Shown one piece after another: positions 1,617 through 59,344 of a stretch of DNA of 64,000 nucleotides. The translations under genes and the position numbers were made by a program. Below the pieces are notes generated by a model. It did not search any database and was not told the origin of the DNA. It was given only the letters and a program-made list of their open reading frames with translations. The stretch lies in the sequence record PZ386951.1; one strand, written 5' to 3'. This stretch comes from a phage. How positions within the stretch are numbered: the stretch's first letter is position 1; each line of letters opens with the position of its first letter.

Positions 1617-1835
1617 TTATGCTTTCTGCTTACCAAAACGAGAAGCATCATCTCGAAGAACCGCACGTGCTCGGCGCATGATCTTCTCAACAGTTTGATT
1701 GATACGAGAGTTCGACCCACGCTTGTAGCCAGCGCGTTTAGAATCACCAACTTTCTTTTCAACTGCTTTCTTTGCTTTAGCTTGTTTTGCCATTATAAAT
1801 TCTCTTTTAAATGAAAATACAGGACTTATTGGCAT
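1617..1835 (-). CDS. hypothetical basic Lys-rich protein (72 aa ORF; likely true start ATG at 1793 giving 58 aa MAKQAKAKK...)
   Basis: ORF followed by rho-independent terminator at 1584-1611. Confidence 0.5.
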   Translation of the reverse strand: MPISPVFSFKREFIMAKQAKAKKAVEKKVGDSKRAGYKRGSNSRINQTVEKIMRRARAVLRDDASRFGKQKA

Positions 1836-2039
1836 TGCCTGCGCAAGCCCTCAAGGGGAACATAGGTTTTTGGATATTTAACGACCAGGATAACCATAAA
1901 CCCGTCATCATTCACATTCAAGAGGTACACCATAAAACTGCCGGGGATCTTAAAACTATAATGATTCGCAAATCATTAATCAGACAGTTCGATGGCTCCT
2001 CGATTTTAGCTCACACTAAGGCAGTGAATCTCCAATAAA

Positions 2040-2288
2040 TTACTTCAATGTTACCACAAAGTGACGAACTGCTTTTCGTGCAGCAGAAGCCAAAGGCTTA
2101 GCATATTTAAGTTCATCTTTTTCCTGAAGCTCGGCAGCTAATGCAGTTTGAGCAGGATTCAGATGTTTGAAATAACGCAGGATTTCAAGAGCTTCGGCTT
2201 CAACATCAATAGATGCGCCATAGTTTTCGTGACCATTATTCCATGCGTTTCGTTGCAGTTCAAGAGCGTGTTGTAATTGTTTAATCAT
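2040..2288 (-). CDS. rIII: rIII lysis-inhibition accessory protein (82 aa)
   Basis: 82-aa product directly downstream of gene 31, matching T4 rIII size and map position. Confidence 0.75.
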   Translation of the reverse strand: MIKQLQHALELQRNAWNNGHENYGASIDVEAEALEILRYFKHLNPAQTALAAELQEKDELKYAKPLASAARKAVRHFVVTLK

Positions 2289-2435
2289 TTAAAAATTCTC
2301 GTTAGAGATTAAAACTCGGTAGTCACGTTCTTCTGAATTTCATCTTCTTTCGACAGATCTCTCAGTTGTAGACTACCACATAGAATTGTTCGGTTAACTT
2401 ATTATTCCGACACCCAATTCATATTATTATTTATA

Positions 2436-2771
2436 TCACTTATAAAGACACGGAATAGCTTTATAGTGACAAGTAACGAATTTTTGTTTAATTTCTTTTG
2501 GCTGCTTAAGACCCAGAGCTACAAAAGGATGCGGAACATTTCGAATTTGACCAACTGGAAGAGAAGTCAAATCACCAACTTCACAGAAACCTTCAGGAAC
2601 ATCAGGACCAACAGAGTGAACTACACACAGTTCAGGAACTTCACCTTGAACACGTTTACCGATAATAAGTCCTGATTCTGTAACTTCTTCATCACCGGCT
2701 TGTGCAGGTTCAGAAACTAAAATAACATATTCACCGACAGCACGAATTGGTAGCTGTTGTACTTCAGACAT
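2436..2771 (-). CDS. 31: gp31 co-chaperonin (GroES-like, 111 aa)
   Basis: 111 aa, sequence as I recall T4 gp31 ([16 protein letters not shown]...); position between cd and rIII. Confidence 0.9.
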
Positions 2772-2827
2772 CGTTTTTCCTTTTTGTTAACAGATGAATT
2801 AATAATAACAAATAATTCTTAAAGCAT

Positions 2828-3136
2828 TTATTTACCAATAAATTGAAGCAAATGCTCAACTTTCATACCATTAACAGAAATCAATTTGTCAATAGAAAAA
2901 CCTCGCCAAGCGCCAAGTTCAACATCAAATACTGGAATCATATCCGTAGATTCTTTCCGAGTAGATTCAGTCAATTTACCGGTTTGCATGGTTGGCATAA
3001 AGTCTGCATCACGAGTACCTTTCATAGTACGAATAGTACCATCAGACTTTTCAAAAACTACGTTTGAAATACCCATGGACAATTTAGTTTTCAAAATTTC
3101 ACGAATTGCTACTTTCTGTTCAGTTGTCAGTTTCAT
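2828..3136 (-). CDS. hypothetical protein (102 aa)
   Basis: ORF between cd and 31 (T4 31.1/31.2 region). Confidence 0.5.
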   Translation of the reverse strand: MKLTTEQKVAIREILKTKLSMGISNVVFEKSDGTIRTMKGTRDADFMPTMQTGKLTESTRKESTDMIPVFDVELGAWRGFSIDKLISVNGMKVEHLLQFIGK

Positions 3137-3373
3137 TTATTTACCTATTACAGTTTTATGATAAATTGTTCCACGTTCTTTAAGAGTGGAAAGTAATTTT
3201 TGATATTTTTCTAAATCAGATTTCCAACTATGCGGTCTATCAATACAAACCCAGTTTGATTTATAATACTGTTTCCACCTAGAGAAAAAATATTTCTTAT
3301 ACTCTACAGCAAATGAAATGTTCTCGGTAGAATAAGAACTAATTGCTGTGAGCTGTACCAAACGAAATTTCAT
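3137..3373 (-). CDS. hypothetical protein (78 aa)
   Basis: ORF, stop/start overlap with cd. Confidence 0.45.
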   Translation of the reverse strand: MKFRLVQLTAISSYSTENISFAVEYKKYFFSRWKQYYKSNWVCIDRPHSWKSDLEKYQKLLSTLKERGTIYHKTVIGK

Positions 3374-3954
3374 TATTCACCACAGAATTCGTTGATATTT
3401 TCCCAGTTTAACTTATTCAAGTTTTTCTTAGGAACATTAAACACTTCAATACCTGCATTTCGCAGAATATCATCCCAGCCAGGTTTATTTTTATCGTATG
3501 TTTCGCAATAAACCAGCTTTTTAATTCCAGATTGAGCTATTGCTTTTGCACAATCTGGGCAAGGAGAAAGTGTTACATACATAGTAGCACCTTCAATAGA
3601 AGAACCATTTCGTGCAGCAAACAAAATTGCATTTAGCTCAGCATGAATTTCATTTTTAGACGACCATTCAGAGTGAGCGCTACGGTGTTCTTTCGCCAAG
3701 ACAAAGCGATCAGTTGAACCAAATGATACGCATTCAGGCTTATGGCCTTGAATGATAGTGTGTTTAGGCTTATTCAACAACCATCCTTGCTCAGCAGCAT
3801 AATCACAACAGTTCACACCCCCTGCGGGTGAACCATTATACCCAGTAGAAATAATACGTCCATTCTTTTCAATTACTGCTCCTACCTTCCAGGAGCAACA
3901 TTTTGATTCCTGCGATACTAAATATGCAATTTGAAGTACTGTACTCGCTTTCAT
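3373..3954 (-). CDS. cd: dCMP deaminase (193 aa)
   Basis: 193 aa; zinc-binding deaminase motifs HAELNAI and PCPDCAKA. Confidence 0.9.
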   Translation of the reverse strand: MKASTVLQIAYLVSQESKCCSWKVGAVIEKNGRIISTGYNGSPAGGVNCCDYAAEQGWLLNKPKHTIIQGHKPECVSFGSTDRFVLAKEHRSAHSEWSSKNEIHAELNAILFAARNGSSIEGATMYVTLSPCPDCAKAIAQSGIKKLVYCETYDKNKPGWDDILRNAGIEVFNVPKKNLNKLNWENINEFCGE

Positions 3955-53855: not shown

Positions 53856-55195
<1,340 letters not shown>

Positions 55196-55285: not shown

Positions 55286-55486
55286 ATGGTACAAAAATTA
55301 ATGGCACTTGTTAATGCCATAAAAGGTAATAAGAAACGTATAGCTTTTACTATTTCTGCTATGATAGGAATTTTACTTTGGAATTTTGTTTTATCGCCAG
55401 TTGCTATTGCTCATGGCGTTAGTATTCCAGTAGTTACTCTTGATACATTCGTAGATTTAGCATTTGCTTTAGTTGGGTTAATTTAA
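55286..55486 (+). CDS. small two-helix membrane protein (66 aa), opposite strand to surrounding genes
   Basis: AAGGAGG SD 4 nt before ATG; two hydrophobic segments; stop overlaps gene 61 stop. Confidence 0.5.
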   Translation: MVQKLMALVNAIKGNKKRIAFTISAMIGILLWNFVLSPVAIAHGVSIPVVTLDTFVDLAFALVGLI

Positions 55487-56511
55487 ATCTTAGCATATTT
55501 AGATAGCCGCATTTTAGCCATTAACCCCTGGGCAATATTATTTTTCATATATTCCATAATTTGTTCAGGGGTTGCACCTTCCTTTCTAATCATATCATTA
55601 ACATCTTTTGATTTCCAGGGAGATTTATCCCAAAACATAACCCTTTCTCCTGCATCAACTAATTTAGTCATTCGCTTAATAGTGTCAGGATGACGAGGTT
55701 CATTATCTAAAACCCACACACGTCTATCTTTAAATGGAACAACTTCTAGGTCTAATTGACCACCCGTAATAGCTATACCATTTTCAATAAAAAGTGAATC
55801 TATAGGTCCTTCTAGAACATATACATCACCATCTTTAACTCGTTCGACTCCATAGATTTTTGTTGCCTCAGGATAAGCTTTGATGGTGATATATTTTTGA
55901 GGAGCATCTTTCTTTAATGCACGCCCTTGAAAAGACTCAGCTTTTCCATTAGCATTATAAATTGGAATAACAAGACGAGGCTCAGAAATTTCCATTTTAT
56001 ATGTTCCCGGTGCTATGCTATTAACCAATTTAGGCCATTCGGTTGTAAACCAAAGATATTTCCATTTATCCTTTGGAATACAACGAGCTTTTACATATTT
56101 TATAATTGGATGGTCTTCCGCCAGTTTATCTAATCTAACACATGACGGAAGAGATTTAATTATTTTCTTCTCAAGTTGTTTAGGAAGTTCTTTAGGTTTT
56201 TCTACTGGACGACTTTTACCTTTTTCTTTTCTTATTTCAAAGATATACTCACGATATAAATCAGGTTCAAACTCCTTTAAATATATTCCGATTGGTGCAT
56301 GATAGTTACAGTTATAACAATGAATATTTCCTTCATTATTATCACCATAATACCATCCACGGGCTTTATTTTGGTCGGTTTTTGAATCTCCACACACTGG
56401 GCATCTAAACCGTAATTTAAAAGTTGAACTATTATTTACTTGTGTGAATTTAGGTAAATGAGCTAATGCACGGTATGCAAACTCATTATCAATCCAAGGT
56501 ATTGATGACAT
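55483..56511 (-). CDS. 61: DNA primase gp61 (342 aa)
   Basis: N-terminal zinc finger CPVCGDS...CYNC; 342 aa. Confidence 0.9.
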   Translation of the reverse strand: MSSIPWIDNEFAYRALAHLPKFTQVNNSSTFKLRFRCPVCGDSKTDQNKARGWYYGDNNEGNIHCYNCNYHAPIGIYLKEFEPDLYREYIFEIRKEKGKSRPVEKPKELPKQLEKKIIKSLPSCVRLDKLAEDHPIIKYVKARCIPKDKWKYLWFTTEWPKLVNSIAPGTYKMEISEPRLVIPIYNANGKAESFQGRALKKDAPQKYITIKAYPEATKIYGVERVKDGDVYVLEGPIDSLFIENGIAITGGQLDLEVVPFKDRRVWVLDNEPRHPDTIKRMTKLVDAGERVMFWDKSPWKSKDVNDMIRKEGATPEQIMEYMKNNIAQGLMAKMRLSKYAKI

Positions 56512-56513
56512 TT

Positions 56514-56678
56514 TTACTCTTCTTTTTCTTTAGATTCCTCTTTTTTCTTTTTAGGAATCTGTTCAGGACCTTTATTTACTACAGCGCCTGATGTTGTTCC
56601 AGTAGAGATATTTTCAGGACTACCACCTGAATCTCCAGCGACCATATCTTCTTTGATAAATTCTTTATATGTTTTCAT
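56514..56678 (-). CDS. small hydrophilic protein (54 aa), below cutoff
   Basis: AGAGG SD; Lys/Glu-rich C-terminus; stop next to gene 61 ATG. Confidence 0.45.
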   Translation of the reverse strand: MKTYKEFIKEDMVAGDSGGSPENISTGTTSGAVVNKGPEQIPKKKKEESKEKEE

Positions 56679-56690
56679 ATTAGCCTCTAA

Positions 56691-56984
56691 TTATTCACCT
56701 ACCACTTCAGCGATGATATTTTTATTATTGAAGTTTTTATCACAATACAGAACGTAATTATACTGCATTACACCACCAGACTTAAGCTGTTTTTGTACTT
56801 CAGCTTTCATTTCAGGGCGATCACGCTCAACGATATTCATAATATCTGCTTCAATCTGAGTTTCAACCTCAGTCTGATCTGCAGTCATAGACCATTCGCA
56901 CAAATCTTTATCATAACCTGCCATAGCAGGCTGAGCAGCACAAGAAGCTAAAGCAAAAATTGCAGCAAAAACAAATTTTTTCAT
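56691..56984 (-). CDS. sp: periplasmic Spackle protein (97 aa)
   Basis: signal peptide; 97 aa; position between 61 and 41. Confidence 0.75.
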   Translation of the reverse strand: MKKFVFAAIFALASCAAQPAMAGYDKDLCEWSMTADQTEVETQIEADIMNIVERDRPEMKAEVQKQLKSGGVMQYNYVLYCDKNFNNKNIIAEVVGE

Positions 56985-57044
56985 GATAATCTCCTCAGTA
57001 GTTTATGTTTATATAGTATCTCAATTTCCAACAAAAGTAAACAG

Positions 57045-57302
57045 TTATTTTAAAACTTCTGCATAATCACATGTTACAAACTGTTTCTCTAGCTTGACGA
57101 TTTTACGAAAGTATCTTTTGCATTGACGAATCTGCCGCTTCGTAGGACGTACAGCAAACTTAATAAATTCCACTCGACCAAATGGAGGACTTTCTTCTGC
57201 TGGAATATCTAACACCAATTCCCACGTATCCGCAATAAGTGCCTTGAATTGAGTATTTTTCCTAACATTATACGGAGTAGGTTTAAATAAAACAATATGC
57301 AT
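57045..57302 (-). CDS. hypothetical protein (85 aa), 61.4-like
   Basis: ORF between sp and dmd. Confidence 0.5.
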   Translation of the reverse strand: MHIVLFKPTPYNVRKNTQFKALIADTWELVLDIPAEESPPFGRVEFIKFAVRPTKRQIRQCKRYFRKIVKLEKQFVTCDYAEVLK

Positions 57303-57303
57303 A

Positions 57304-57486
57304 TTATCCTCGGCAATCTACTTCATATACTTTCTTGTCATCAATGAAAGCTTTAACTAATGCTTTATTAACTTCAGCATATTGCGTAGTAGCCCATTGA
57401 ACGTCATCTTTCATCATTGTGATTTCTTTAGTAAACATGCTTTCATTCTTAAACCACCCCATAAAAACTACCTTTACCAATTCCAT
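57304..57486 (-). CDS. dmd: Dmd antitoxin (60 aa)
   Basis: 60 aa, position just downstream of gene 41 with own early promoter. Confidence 0.7.
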   Translation of the reverse strand: MELVKVVFMGWFKNESMFTKEITMMKDDVQWATTQYAEVNKALVKAFIDDKKVYEVDCRG

Positions 57487-57511
57487 AACAATCTCCTCAT
57501 TTAACCAACAA

Positions 57512-57545
57512 GACTACTATACCATAGTCTTGTCAGCTTGTAAAC
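57512..57545 (-). promoter_or_regulatory. early promoter upstream of dmd
   Basis: GTTTACA -35, TGG-TATAGTAG -10. Confidence 0.55.
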
Positions 57546-58972
57546 TAAAATTTTAATTCATTTGCCAAAGCATCTAACTGAGCTCGAGTGGATTCATTTC
57601 TTTGATAGCGATTCTGCTCAGCTTGTATCTGTTGTGAACCTGCTACCTCACTCACTTCAGTTGGAGTAGAATCTTGCTCAATTTCTACCCATTTTTGATT
57701 TCCTTTTTGAACACCCATCAAAAACTTATTCCACTTATTCTTATCACCATATCGTGATTTGATTTGCTTAATGAGTTGTTGTTCAGCAGCTGCTAGCTCC
57801 TCGGTTTCAATGACCGCAAGCATAAAATCAGCTGTTGCTGGAAGACCAGCAGATTCTGCGATATCACTCATGTTAACATCAGAAGAATCCCAAGCTTGTT
57901 TGCCGACCTGCGCTGCAGTCCAAAGAACAGTTTCAGTTTCAACAGCAAGAGCACGCAATTCCTCTGCAATAGCTTTAACAGTTGTGTAACTATTTTCTGA
58001 ATAAACTCTGATGCGGCAAGATTTACAAATACCTAGATAGTCGACAATAATGATTGTTGGAACAAAATTCTTTTTGAGCTTCAATTCATTCAAGAGAGAC
58101 CTGAATGTGTTAGCATCTGCCCCACCAGTAGGGTACTGTTTAACAATTAAACGACCGAGAGTAGATTTCTCACGCCATTTTTCCATTTTTCCTTTATACT
58201 CAGCGTAAGAAATGTGTCCATCATCAATGTCATCAAGAGAAACATCAAGCATATTAGCATCAATACGCTTAGCACAGACTTCTTCTGCCATTTCCATGGA
58301 AATGTAAAGAACATTATGTCCGAGCTGCAAATAATCTGCTGCCAATGAACACAGACCTAATGACTTACCAACGTTAACGCCAGCCATTAAAACGTTCAGT
58401 GTTCCAGTTTCAGCTCCGCCTTTCGTAATTTTGTTTAGAATTCTGAGTTTAAATGGAACCTTACGAGCTTTATTCATATAAGATAGCCAACGTGCTTCGT
58501 AGTCATCCATCCAATCATGACCAACGTAACTATCAAATGAAATAGATAATGCCTGGCGCATGATGTCAGGAATAGCACCAACATCCGGCATTTTCTTATT
58601 TCGTTTTTCCGGAGGAAGTTCAGCATTAGTTTGAATTTCGATTATTTTAGACGTAGCATTAAACATCGCCCTTTGCTGAACATATTTTTCTGTTTCTTTT
58701 ACTAACCAGCTGTGGTCTTCCGGAGAATCAGCCAGTTTTGAAATAAGTGTTTTTACACCAGAATATTCTGTTTCAGTAAATGAACTATTTTCTAATGCAA
58801 CATTTAACGCATTAATAGATGGAACGCTATGATACTCATTAACATGAGATTTAATTAATTTGAATGTATTTTTAGCTGGACCACTTTCAAAATATTCTGA
58901 ATCCATATATGGCCAAACTTTTGAAAAATAAGCTTGATCAAATATGAGATGAGAAAGAATAATTTCTACCAC
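57545..58972 (-). CDS. 41: replicative DnaB-like helicase gp41 (475 aa)
   Basis: Walker A GVNVGKS; 475 aa. Confidence 0.95.
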   Translation of the reverse strand: MVEIILSHLIFDQAYFSKVWPYMDSEYFESGPAKNTFKLIKSHVNEYHSVPSINALNVALENSSFTETEYSGVKTLISKLADSPEDHSWLVKETEKYVQQRAMFNATSKIIEIQTNAELPPEKRNKKMPDVGAIPDIMRQALSISFDSYVGHDWMDDYEARWLSYMNKARKVPFKLRILNKITKGGAETGTLNVLMAGVNVGKSLGLCSLAADYLQLGHNVLYISMEMAEEVCAKRIDANMLDVSLDDIDDGHISYAEYKGKMEKWREKSTLGRLIVKQYPTGGADANTFRSLLNELKLKKNFVPTIIIVDYLGICKSCRIRVYSENSYTTVKAIAEELRALAVETETVLWTAAQVGKQAWDSSDVNMSDIAESAGLPATADFMLAVIETEELAAAEQQLIKQIKSRYGDKNKWNKFLMGVQKGNQKWVEIEQDSTPTEVSEVAGSQQIQAEQNRYQRNESTRAQLDALANELKF

Positions 58973-58981
58973 ACTTACTCC

Positions 58982-59344
58982 TTAAAAGAATTTAAATTTT
59001 TTCTTTGACCTTTTATTAAATGCATCTTGTAGTTGCATTGTAATACATTTTTCTACATGAGGAGCTAACTCAGCTTTTCTTTCTTGGTCAAGAACAGCAA
59101 AGTCCATTACAACCTTTCCATCAACCCAATCTAATTTTGTCACATATACAATGTGTGTAGAACCATCTTCTAGTTTAATGACAATCTCCTGGATAACATT
59201 TTCCATAGCGGATTTAATTATCTTAAGAGACTCATTAAAAAGACGTTCTTTTCTTTCTTCTTCCCCCTCCGAAGAGGGGGATTCATCGATAATTTCTAGA
59301 TCTAAATCTAAATCATCTTTATTCATTAAATTCTTCCATATCAC
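58982..59344 (-). CDS. 40: gp40 head assembly protein (120 aa)
   Basis: size and position between uvsX and 41. Confidence 0.6.
   Translation of the reverse strand: MIWKNLMNKDDLDLDLEIIDESPSSEGEEERKERLFNESLKIIKSAMENVIQEIVIKLEDGSTHIVYVTKLDWVDGKVVMDFAVLDQERKAELAPHVEKCITMQLQDAFNKRSKKKFKFF

Follow-up and report, generated by a model that had tools for sequence, protein, structure and literature searches.

Here, we report that positions 56514-57486 of a 64-kb stretch of phage DNA (sequence record PZ386951.1, hereafter the window) hold, with a probability that we put at about 90%, the island of accessory genes found in T4-like phages (Tequatrovirus) between the replicative helicase gene 41 and the primase gene 61, with a complement that comprises dmd, tifA, sp, and 61.1 and from which adfA (gene 61.2) is absent. 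The cluster is already known and has been experimentally characterized in T4, where the region was proposed as a possible "anti-TA island", i.e., a locus directed against toxin–antitoxin (TA) systems (PMC9391042); what we describe is a natural variant without adfA. The window represents 64 kb of a genome of roughly 168 kb, and all statements of absence in this text cover these 64 kb. Phage T4T served as the reference for the identity counts of the island proteins and their flanks.

An earlier reading of the same DNA (the original prediction) had placed four small open reading frames (ORFs) between primase 61 and helicase 41, and all four are found where it put them, on the minus strand. Read leftward, the order is dmd-tifA-sp-61.1-61, tightly packed, with spacers of 1 nt (dmd-tifA), 60 nt (tifA-sp), 12 nt (sp-61.1), and 2 nt (61.1-primase). 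The 60-residue ORF named as Dmd (gene 61.5; 57304-57486, minus strand) is indeed Dmd, as it matches PF17587 over residues 1-60 of 60 (E=6.5e-45) and is 59/60 identical to its T4T counterpart. Directly downstream, tifA (gene 61.4; 57045-57302, minus strand) encodes 85 residues that match DUF7279 (PF23945, E=2.3e-20), 84 of them identical to T4T. The ORF assigned to periplasmic Sp, or Spackle (gene 61.3; 56691-56984, minus strand; 97 residues), matches PF25676 with E=4.8e-45, begins with an N-terminal signal peptide, and is 94/97 identical to T4T. The 54-residue Lys/Glu-rich ORF, gene 61.1 (56514-56678, minus strand), which ends with the C-terminal sequence KKKKEESKEKEE, is real as well; it matches phrog_1823 (E=2.4e-33), with 52/54 residues identical to T4T gp61.1. 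The proposed alignment to the T4 61.x proteins returned homology for every ORF, and the island proteins are each 96-99% identical to their T4 counterparts, the substitutions relative to T4T being C54Y in Dmd, I83V in TifA, I5V/T8A/K53E in Sp, and F4Y/N20S in gp61.1. A megablast search with 56400-57600 matched 503 phage records, almost exclusively Tequatrovirus, with identities of 90-99%. Over a stretch of 8.5 kb, no record exceeds 96.8% identity. The equation of this interval with the T4 61.1-61.5 region stands for 61.1, sp, 61.4, and dmd, and fails for 61.2 (adfA), which is missing, with only 12 bp between sp and 61.1.

This missing gene is the main correction to the original prediction. In T4T, a 208-residue gene 61.2 (adfA, 627 bp), encoding the anti-DarT factor (PMC9391042, PMC11257639), lies between sp and 61.1; in the window, its place is taken by the 12-nt spacer TTAGAGGCTAAT (56679-56690, minus strand). 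A tblastn search of the whole 64-kb window with AdfA of T4 and T-01 and with the short paralogs gave a best E value of about 1. The slot varies among phages: it is empty in RPN226 and the RB3 group, holds a 118-residue ORF in EH2/T2, holds 61.2 alone in T4, and holds a 108-residue ORF plus 61.2 in T-01. In the phage collection, full-length AdfA occurs in 487 records and the short paralog in 306 records, the latter frequently alongside full-length adfA. Of the 32 records found with a 60-bp probe for the sp|61.1 junction of the window, 28 span the junction, and the empty-junction records come from different sources, including RB3, RB7, phiC600P9, RPN226, KNP5, and a Hafnia phage. The empty slot is a minority natural allele and not an artifact.

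It could be argued that this phage has the complete 61.1-61.5 set after all, with adfA elsewhere in the genome or with a gap that arose as an assembly or laboratory deletion artifact; the examined part is, after all, 64 kb of roughly 168 kb, and deletions at microhomologies arise readily in laboratory-grown T4 (PMC9391042). However, AdfA is single-copy in each of its 487 records (487 places) and stands beside sp in the T4-type matches listed, the identical contiguous junction recurs in the 28 records from different sources, and T2 has been reported as naturally devoid of adfA (PMC11257639). We consider a complete set highly improbable. Each cargo gene of the slot is bounded by a ribosome-binding-site cassette of 14-16 bp, TAGAGGTTA(A/G)TATG, comprising the Shine-Dalgarno sequence and the start codon, and the window junction GGTGAATAATTAGAGGCTAATATGAAAACA is the expected remainder of a recombination between two such cassettes around a T2-type ORF. 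The empty slot looks like the product of recombination between two cassette copies, a structure that we observe and an event that we infer from it.

The 118-residue ORF of EH2/T2 shows homology to AdfA, namely to its C-terminal half (E=5e-9; 33% identity over 103 residues). In EH2 (L004, 1781-2137), the last 12 residues of this ORF are identical to those of AdfA, and IDDQIFNAFMNRG is common to both. Since T2 is described as lacking adfA and yet has this AdfA-like ORF, the short form may deserve a test against DarT. As for the window, counter-defense against DarT by way of AdfA is predicted to be absent from the interval. The functional cost of the loss is probably small, because T2 naturally lacks adfA, T4 deleted for adfA showed no phenotype, and the factor that was identified in T-even phages as acting against DarTG1 is AdfN (gp30.3; PMC11257639). 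The gene adfN (30.3) was sought in the 64-kb window and is not there; it is expected just beyond the left window end, because gene 30.9 is at 1620-1835.

We also considered whether the window represents an RB3-type phage, and rejected it: the junction is 100% identical, but RB3 has an extra 84-residue ORF and a divergent Dmd. The extra ORF lies between sp and 61.4 in the RB3 island (L005, 4922-5176 and 5484-5675), the RB3 61.4 protein has 80 residues with a different C-terminus, and the RB3 Dmd-like protein has 63 residues and is divergent. Comparison of RB3 with the window indicates that the whole 41-61 interval is mosaic at a scale of a few hundred bases.

The functions that the original prediction had named for this region, i.e., Dmd against RnlA/LsoA, 61.4 against ToxIN, and 61.2 against DarTG, agree with the literature (PMC9391042, PMC8266594). 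For the window phage, the functions of Dmd, TifA, and Spackle are deduced from their 97-99% identity to the experimentally studied T4 proteins. Dmd directly inhibits RnlA (PMC9391042) and also inhibits LsoA (PMC8266594), and the structure of T4 Dmd bound to LsoA is available (PDB ID: 5hy3). The window Dmd is 59/60 identical to chain 5hy3_B ("Antitoxin Dmd"), the sole difference being C54Y. Dmd of this phage would bind and block the RNases RnlA and LsoA, and counter-defense against RnlAB/LsoAB is predicted to be present.

The situation is less favorable for ToxIN. The tifA ATG is 1 nt past the dmd stop codon, and the two genes are co-operonic; in T4, dmd and 61.4 form a two-gene locus under an early promoter upstream of dmd, and gp61.4, renamed TifA, inhibits ToxN (PMC9391042). 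Mechanistically, TifA associates with both ToxN and RNA, so that the toxin ends up trapped in a ribonucleoprotein complex (PMC10853763). TifA of the window may be expected to do the same, and it retains the basic residues K55, R56, and R59, which are the residues mutated in the RNA-binding-deficient variant of TifA-RB69 (PMC10853763). An NCBIfam profile scan of TifA returned no match, and no solved structure matched it by sequence. Residue 41 is Phe (F41), the weak T4 allele at an interface residue, at which F41S/H strengthen ToxN inhibition (PMC10853763); wild-type T4, with F41 in single copy, is restricted by toxIN and escapes only via dmd-tifA amplification or F41S/H (PMC9391042, PMC10853763). 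Because the window phage likewise has the F41 allele in single copy, its evasion of ToxIN would require over-production of TifA and is probably dose-limited, as in T4. The original prediction held that the exact complement decides which host systems the phage can evade. This is right insofar as two of the three anti-TA genes it named are present; for ToxIN, the presence of tifA does not amount to evasion.

Sp, on the other hand, is a superinfection-exclusion protein and not an anti-TA factor. Spackle acts as a periplasmic inhibitor of the gp5 tail lysozyme and thereby mediates superinfection exclusion. In the window, the PF25676 match covers residues 1-96, the hydrophobic N-terminus reads MKKFVFAAIFALASCAAQPAMA, and the sequence matches the solved structure 6x6o of the PDB ("Protein spackle", E=6e-61); in 7cn6, a construct of the mature form, residue 23 is the first. 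By this similarity, the protein would be exported to the periplasm and would block the tail lysozyme of later-arriving phages.

Three considerations weigh against our assignment of the island and its roles. All island functions in this phage are transferred by homology to T4 proteins and are to be read as predicted ones; Dmd carries the C54Y change relative to T4, although the aligned RB3 residue is Phe; and the absence of adfA was read from the 64 kb, so that adfA or adfN could lie elsewhere in the genome.

That dmd has its own early promoter was also claimed, and the best sigma-70-like site of 56300-57800 (10/12 in our scan) does lie directly upstream of the gene. This early-type promoter of the dmd-tifA operon (57516-57544, minus strand) consists of a -35 element TTTACA (57544-57539), a 17-nt spacer, and a -10 element TATAGT (57521-57516) preceded by TG, and it begins one base past the gene 41 stop codon. 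Compared with T4T, the 41-dmd intergenic sequence differs at a single base, which lies downstream of the -10 element. A weak promoter candidate, TTTACT-17-TACTAT (57013-57041, minus strand), lies in the 60-bp tifA-sp spacer, which is identical to T4T; it scores 8/12, below the scan threshold, and a promoter downstream of tifA has been mentioned for T4 (PMC9391042). A 15-bp hairpin, AGCUGACAAGACUAU / AUAGUCUUGUUGGUU (57503-57538, minus strand), encloses the spacer and the -10 element of the dmd promoter. The fold of 57560-57480 has a calculated energy of -21.2 kcal/mol (z=-4.79), and 0 of 200 shuffles were as stable; the hairpin is predicted to form, and would do so in RNA reading through from gene 41. 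The island would be transcribed from the early promoter just past gene 41, plus such read-through.

The remaining gene of the island, 61.1, is a T4 ORF without a function since its sequencing, and here the analysis led to a relationship that is statistically solid and, apparently, previously undescribed: gp61.1 is related to the maturation site of gp23, the major capsid protein, and, at its N-terminus, to the capsid targeting sequence (CTS) of the T4 internal proteins. The protein is laid out as a CTS-like N-terminus (MKTYKEFIKE), a segment that copies the maturation site and N-arm of gp23 (residues 8-42), and a mixed-charge Lys/Glu tail. It has no match in Pfam or NCBIfam and matches only PHROG families of unknown function, namely phrog_2086 (E=2.3e-16) in addition to phrog_1823. 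When all PDB sequences were searched with gp61.1, the only match was T4 gp23 (E=0.046), and this similarity explains why some records label gp61.1 as "major capsid domain-containing protein". A Smith-Waterman alignment of gp61.1 residues 2-38 with gp23 residues 57-93 scored 75, a value that none of 5000 shuffles approached (0 above 54; Gumbel p of about 9e-7), and six control proteins scored 22-43. With a profile of 12 close gp61.1 relatives, gp23 was again the only match among all PDB sequences (E=2.9e-5), and with a profile of 51 motif segments, gp23 (residues 62-97) was the only match in the whole PDB (E=1.2e-12). In the latter alignment, the conserved Glu of the family falls on gp23 E65 and the preceding Leu on L63. 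E65|A66 is the site at which the protease gp21 cuts gp23 during maturation (PMC9546572), and gp21 cuts after L/I-x-E (PMC9026906). Residues 66-105 of gp23 lack order in the unexpanded head, where they are believed to reside within the shell and to touch the scaffolding core, and later become the N-arm and N-fist (PMC9546572).

An exhaustive profile search of 1.84 billion representatives yielded 50 gp61.1 family members (50%-identity representatives). The family motif, [LI]-x-E-x-M-V-A-G-D...NIA.G.TSG...GP followed by a Lys-rich tail, is encoded beside primase gene 61. The Glu is 3-4 residues before the AGD anchor in 65/66 members, and the residue two positions before it is Leu/Ile in 40/65 and Leu, Ile, Met, Phe, or Val in 54/65. 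Many members are 120-250 residues long (phrog_2086) and carry the motif after an unrelated N-terminal domain of ~100 residues; the long form is present in 599 T4-like phage records, with Escherichia, Klebsiella, Acinetobacter, Vibrio, Aeromonas, and others as hosts. In Aeromonas phage Aeh1, no gene other than the long form separates helicase 41 from primase 61, and in RB69-like JS09 the family gene is immediately upstream of the primase gene. Given the conservation of the family beside the primase across T4-like phages, gp61.1 represents the ancestral occupant of the interval, into which the defense-related genes were inserted later. We observed that four members (P0031, P0052, P0055, and P0057; 149-251 residues) have a further C-terminal domain of ~100 residues past the Lys-rich tail, e.g., ...FKQFVE...SFKS.G.NSVVVEA..., so that the gp23-like motif can be an inter-domain linker with a protease site. 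In the T6-type gp61.1 (P0002 and P0004; 62 residues), the Lys/Glu tail is replaced by KKKKRNLKKKKSKNVINTLD, which looks like a frameshift in an A-rich run that extends the ORF into the primase gene start; variation seems to be tolerated in the tail, in contrast to the fixed gp23-like core.

The frameshifted look of this tail (P0002) can also be taken, together with the tail's general variability, as a sign that gp61.1 has no function of its own and is either a leader ORF translationally coupled to the primase, whose ATG follows the 61.1 stop codon by 2 nt, or the decaying remains of an ancient gene 23 duplication. The T4-type gp61.1 is a 54-residue remnant of a roughly 155-residue ancestral form, and its structural model is mostly disordered, both of which would suit such a reading. 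A lack of function, however, is hard to reconcile with 22/54 positions that are invariant across relatives down to 61% identity, with a motif that is kept in the 50 representatives and in 599 phage records, and with the nucleotide identity of gene 61.1 to gene 23, which is only 57/111, so that the similarity has been maintained at the protein level over a long divergence. We regard a functionless gp61.1 as rather unlikely. Mimicry by gp61.1 of the Gol peptide of gp23 (Lit activation) was considered too; gp23 residues 62-97 presumably either immediately precede the Gol core or sit at its edge, and we make no such claim.

What gp61.1 might do is suggested by its N-terminus. In T4T, IPII and IPIII start with MKTYQEFIAE and IPI with MKTFKEF; gp61.1 of the window shares 8 of 10 residues with the IPII/IPIII N-terminus, and its first 30 nt are identical to ipII and ipIII at 25 positions. 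The two strands of the window have 2602 ATG codons; at none of the others does the CTS match exceed 5/10, and gp61.1 alone combines an aromatic residue 4 ([YF]), F7, [IL]8, and E10, here as Y4, F7, I8, and E10. The first 10 residues of IPIII suffice for packaging, with positions 4 and 7 serving targeting and positions 8 and 10 serving processing (PMC9026906, PMC8442874). Many short-form relatives from other phages also start with an M-K-x-F-x-E/D-F-like sequence. By analogy, gp61.1 would enter the prohead core, be cut by gp21 after Glu10, and be carried in the head. Such a cut would leave a 44-residue peptide that begins at Asp11 with DMVAGDSGG(N/S)PENISTGTTSGAVVNK, while the uncut form would start MKT(F/Y)KEFIKEDMVAGD. 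Packaging is the best-supported mechanism that we can offer for gp61.1, and we put it forward tentatively, as a step that we infer from its likeness to the internal proteins.

There are several points that speak against packaging. No TATAAATA late promoter was found in 56.5-58 kb, where only early-type sites were found, and the 8 copies of TATAAATA in the window are all elsewhere and are no more than expected by chance; expression of gp61.1 at the time of prohead assembly is accordingly not assured. Residues 11-54 contain 7 Lys/Arg and 9 Asp/Glu, i.e., a net charge of -2, unlike the basic internal proteins, and the relatives of gp61.1 have more basic tails. The AlphaFold model of gp61.1 is of low confidence and mostly coil (mean predicted local distance difference test score, pLDDT, 62; predicted template modeling score, pTM, 0.17). 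Finally, a search of the available literature found no report of gp61.1 in virions, nor any functional account of it.

The early-type expression and the location of the gene may fit a different role, in which gp61.1 stays in the cytoplasm as a decoy or buffer for gp21 that spares host sensors, e.g., the tripwire loop of a CD-NTase (cGAS/DncV-like nucleotidyltransferase) of a cyclic oligonucleotide-based antiphage signaling system (CBASS), or competes with gp23 for scaffold or chaperone. The gp21 site of the family is conserved in register with gp23 E65, 61.1 is expressed from early/middle transcription units within an island of counter-defense genes, and the CBASS enzyme EcCdnG senses T4 in that gp21 cuts it at I/LxE within a disordered loop and thereby activates it (PMC12991175, 2026 preprint). 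This role is entirely inferential, however, and the T4-type N-terminus has capsid-targeting determinants, which a cytoplasmic decoy does not need; we consider it quite unlikely, more so than a gp61.1 without function. Taken broadly, gp61.1 may be a mini-protein that copies the gp23 maturation site and N-arm and acts as a packaged internal peptide, either carried or injected, or as a gp21 decoy shielding from CBASS-like sensing; we hold this broad account to be possible and somewhat doubtful.

For host-range prediction, these results mean a phage with an RnlA/LsoA inhibitor and a weak-allele ToxN inhibitor, and no AdfA. For the evolution of such islands, they point to an exchange of cargo genes, which come and go between repeated ribosome-binding-site cassettes. 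The gp61.1 result provides a concrete and cheap hypothesis on its function, and, if true, would add a new member to the packaged T4 head proteins or reveal a protease decoy. Beyond what was already known of the cluster, we consider the added value to lie in the precise gene complement and the predictions made at the level of alleles, in the empty slot with its cassette borders, and in the relationship among gp61.1, the gp23 maturation site, and the CTS.

The island is flanked by gene 61 (DNA primase; 55483-56511, minus strand; 342 residues, 339 of them identical to T4T gp61) and gene 41 (replicative helicase; 57545-58972, minus strand; 474/475 identical to T4T gp41). At the left end of the window (1620-3954, minus strand), 30.9, rIII, 31, and cd are 98.6-100% identical to T4, which places the start of the window within the gene 30.x cluster. 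The early gene 40 (58982-59344), near the island, encodes a head-assembly factor, so that a head-related gene would not be out of place here. In the RB69-like phage JS09 (L010, 1095-1773), the island also holds imm and imm.1 (superinfection immunity) beside sp, which indicates that the interval gathers superinfection-exclusion genes as well as anti-TA genes. On the other side of the primase, a 186-residue ORF (54635-55195, minus strand) overlaps the dam start codon by ATGA and is absent from T4T, where dam directly precedes dam.1. Its family, phrog_8706, is of unknown function, and the 164 phage records that contain the ORF, T2 among them, all annotate it as hypothetical. Its similarity to PF04556, the DpnII (GATC) restriction endonuclease family, is weak and below threshold (E=0.0045); the ORF may encode a GATC-related nuclease that acts as a partner of the Dam methylase of the phage.

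Compared with known systems, the window interval agrees with the T4 island (Srikant et al. 2022, PMC9391042) in its position between 41 and 61, strand, gene order, and promoter sequence, and differs from it by the missing adfA (627 bp). With the T2/EH2 arrangement (PMC11257639), it shares the lack of full-length AdfA and an otherwise same island, whereas the slot holds the 118-residue ORF in T2/EH2 and is without any ORF in the window. The dmd promoter and its hairpin bear a resemblance, and only that, to the promoter early stem-loop (PeSL) cassettes (Arbiol 2010; Comeau 2014, PMC4122927): the promoter fits TTTACW-N17-TAYWAT at 11/12 positions, has a stable stem-loop, and edges a variable region; the published stem-loop, however, is just upstream of the promoter, while that of the window overlaps the spacer and the -10 element, and the indel of the window is bounded by ribosome-binding-site repeats and not by PeSLs. 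In the alignment of the gp61.1 family motif with gp23 62-97, the cleavage site is in register; unlike gp23, gp61.1 is without an HK97-fold body and has a Lys-rich tail after the motif, and in other genera the motif is joined to the unrelated N-terminal domain of phrog_2086. Although gp61.1 lies outside any ip locus, and its predicted mature part of 44 residues is not basic and is predicted to be unstructured, it has in common with the T4 internal proteins a CTS-like N-terminus and an L/I-x-E protease site at residues 8-10.

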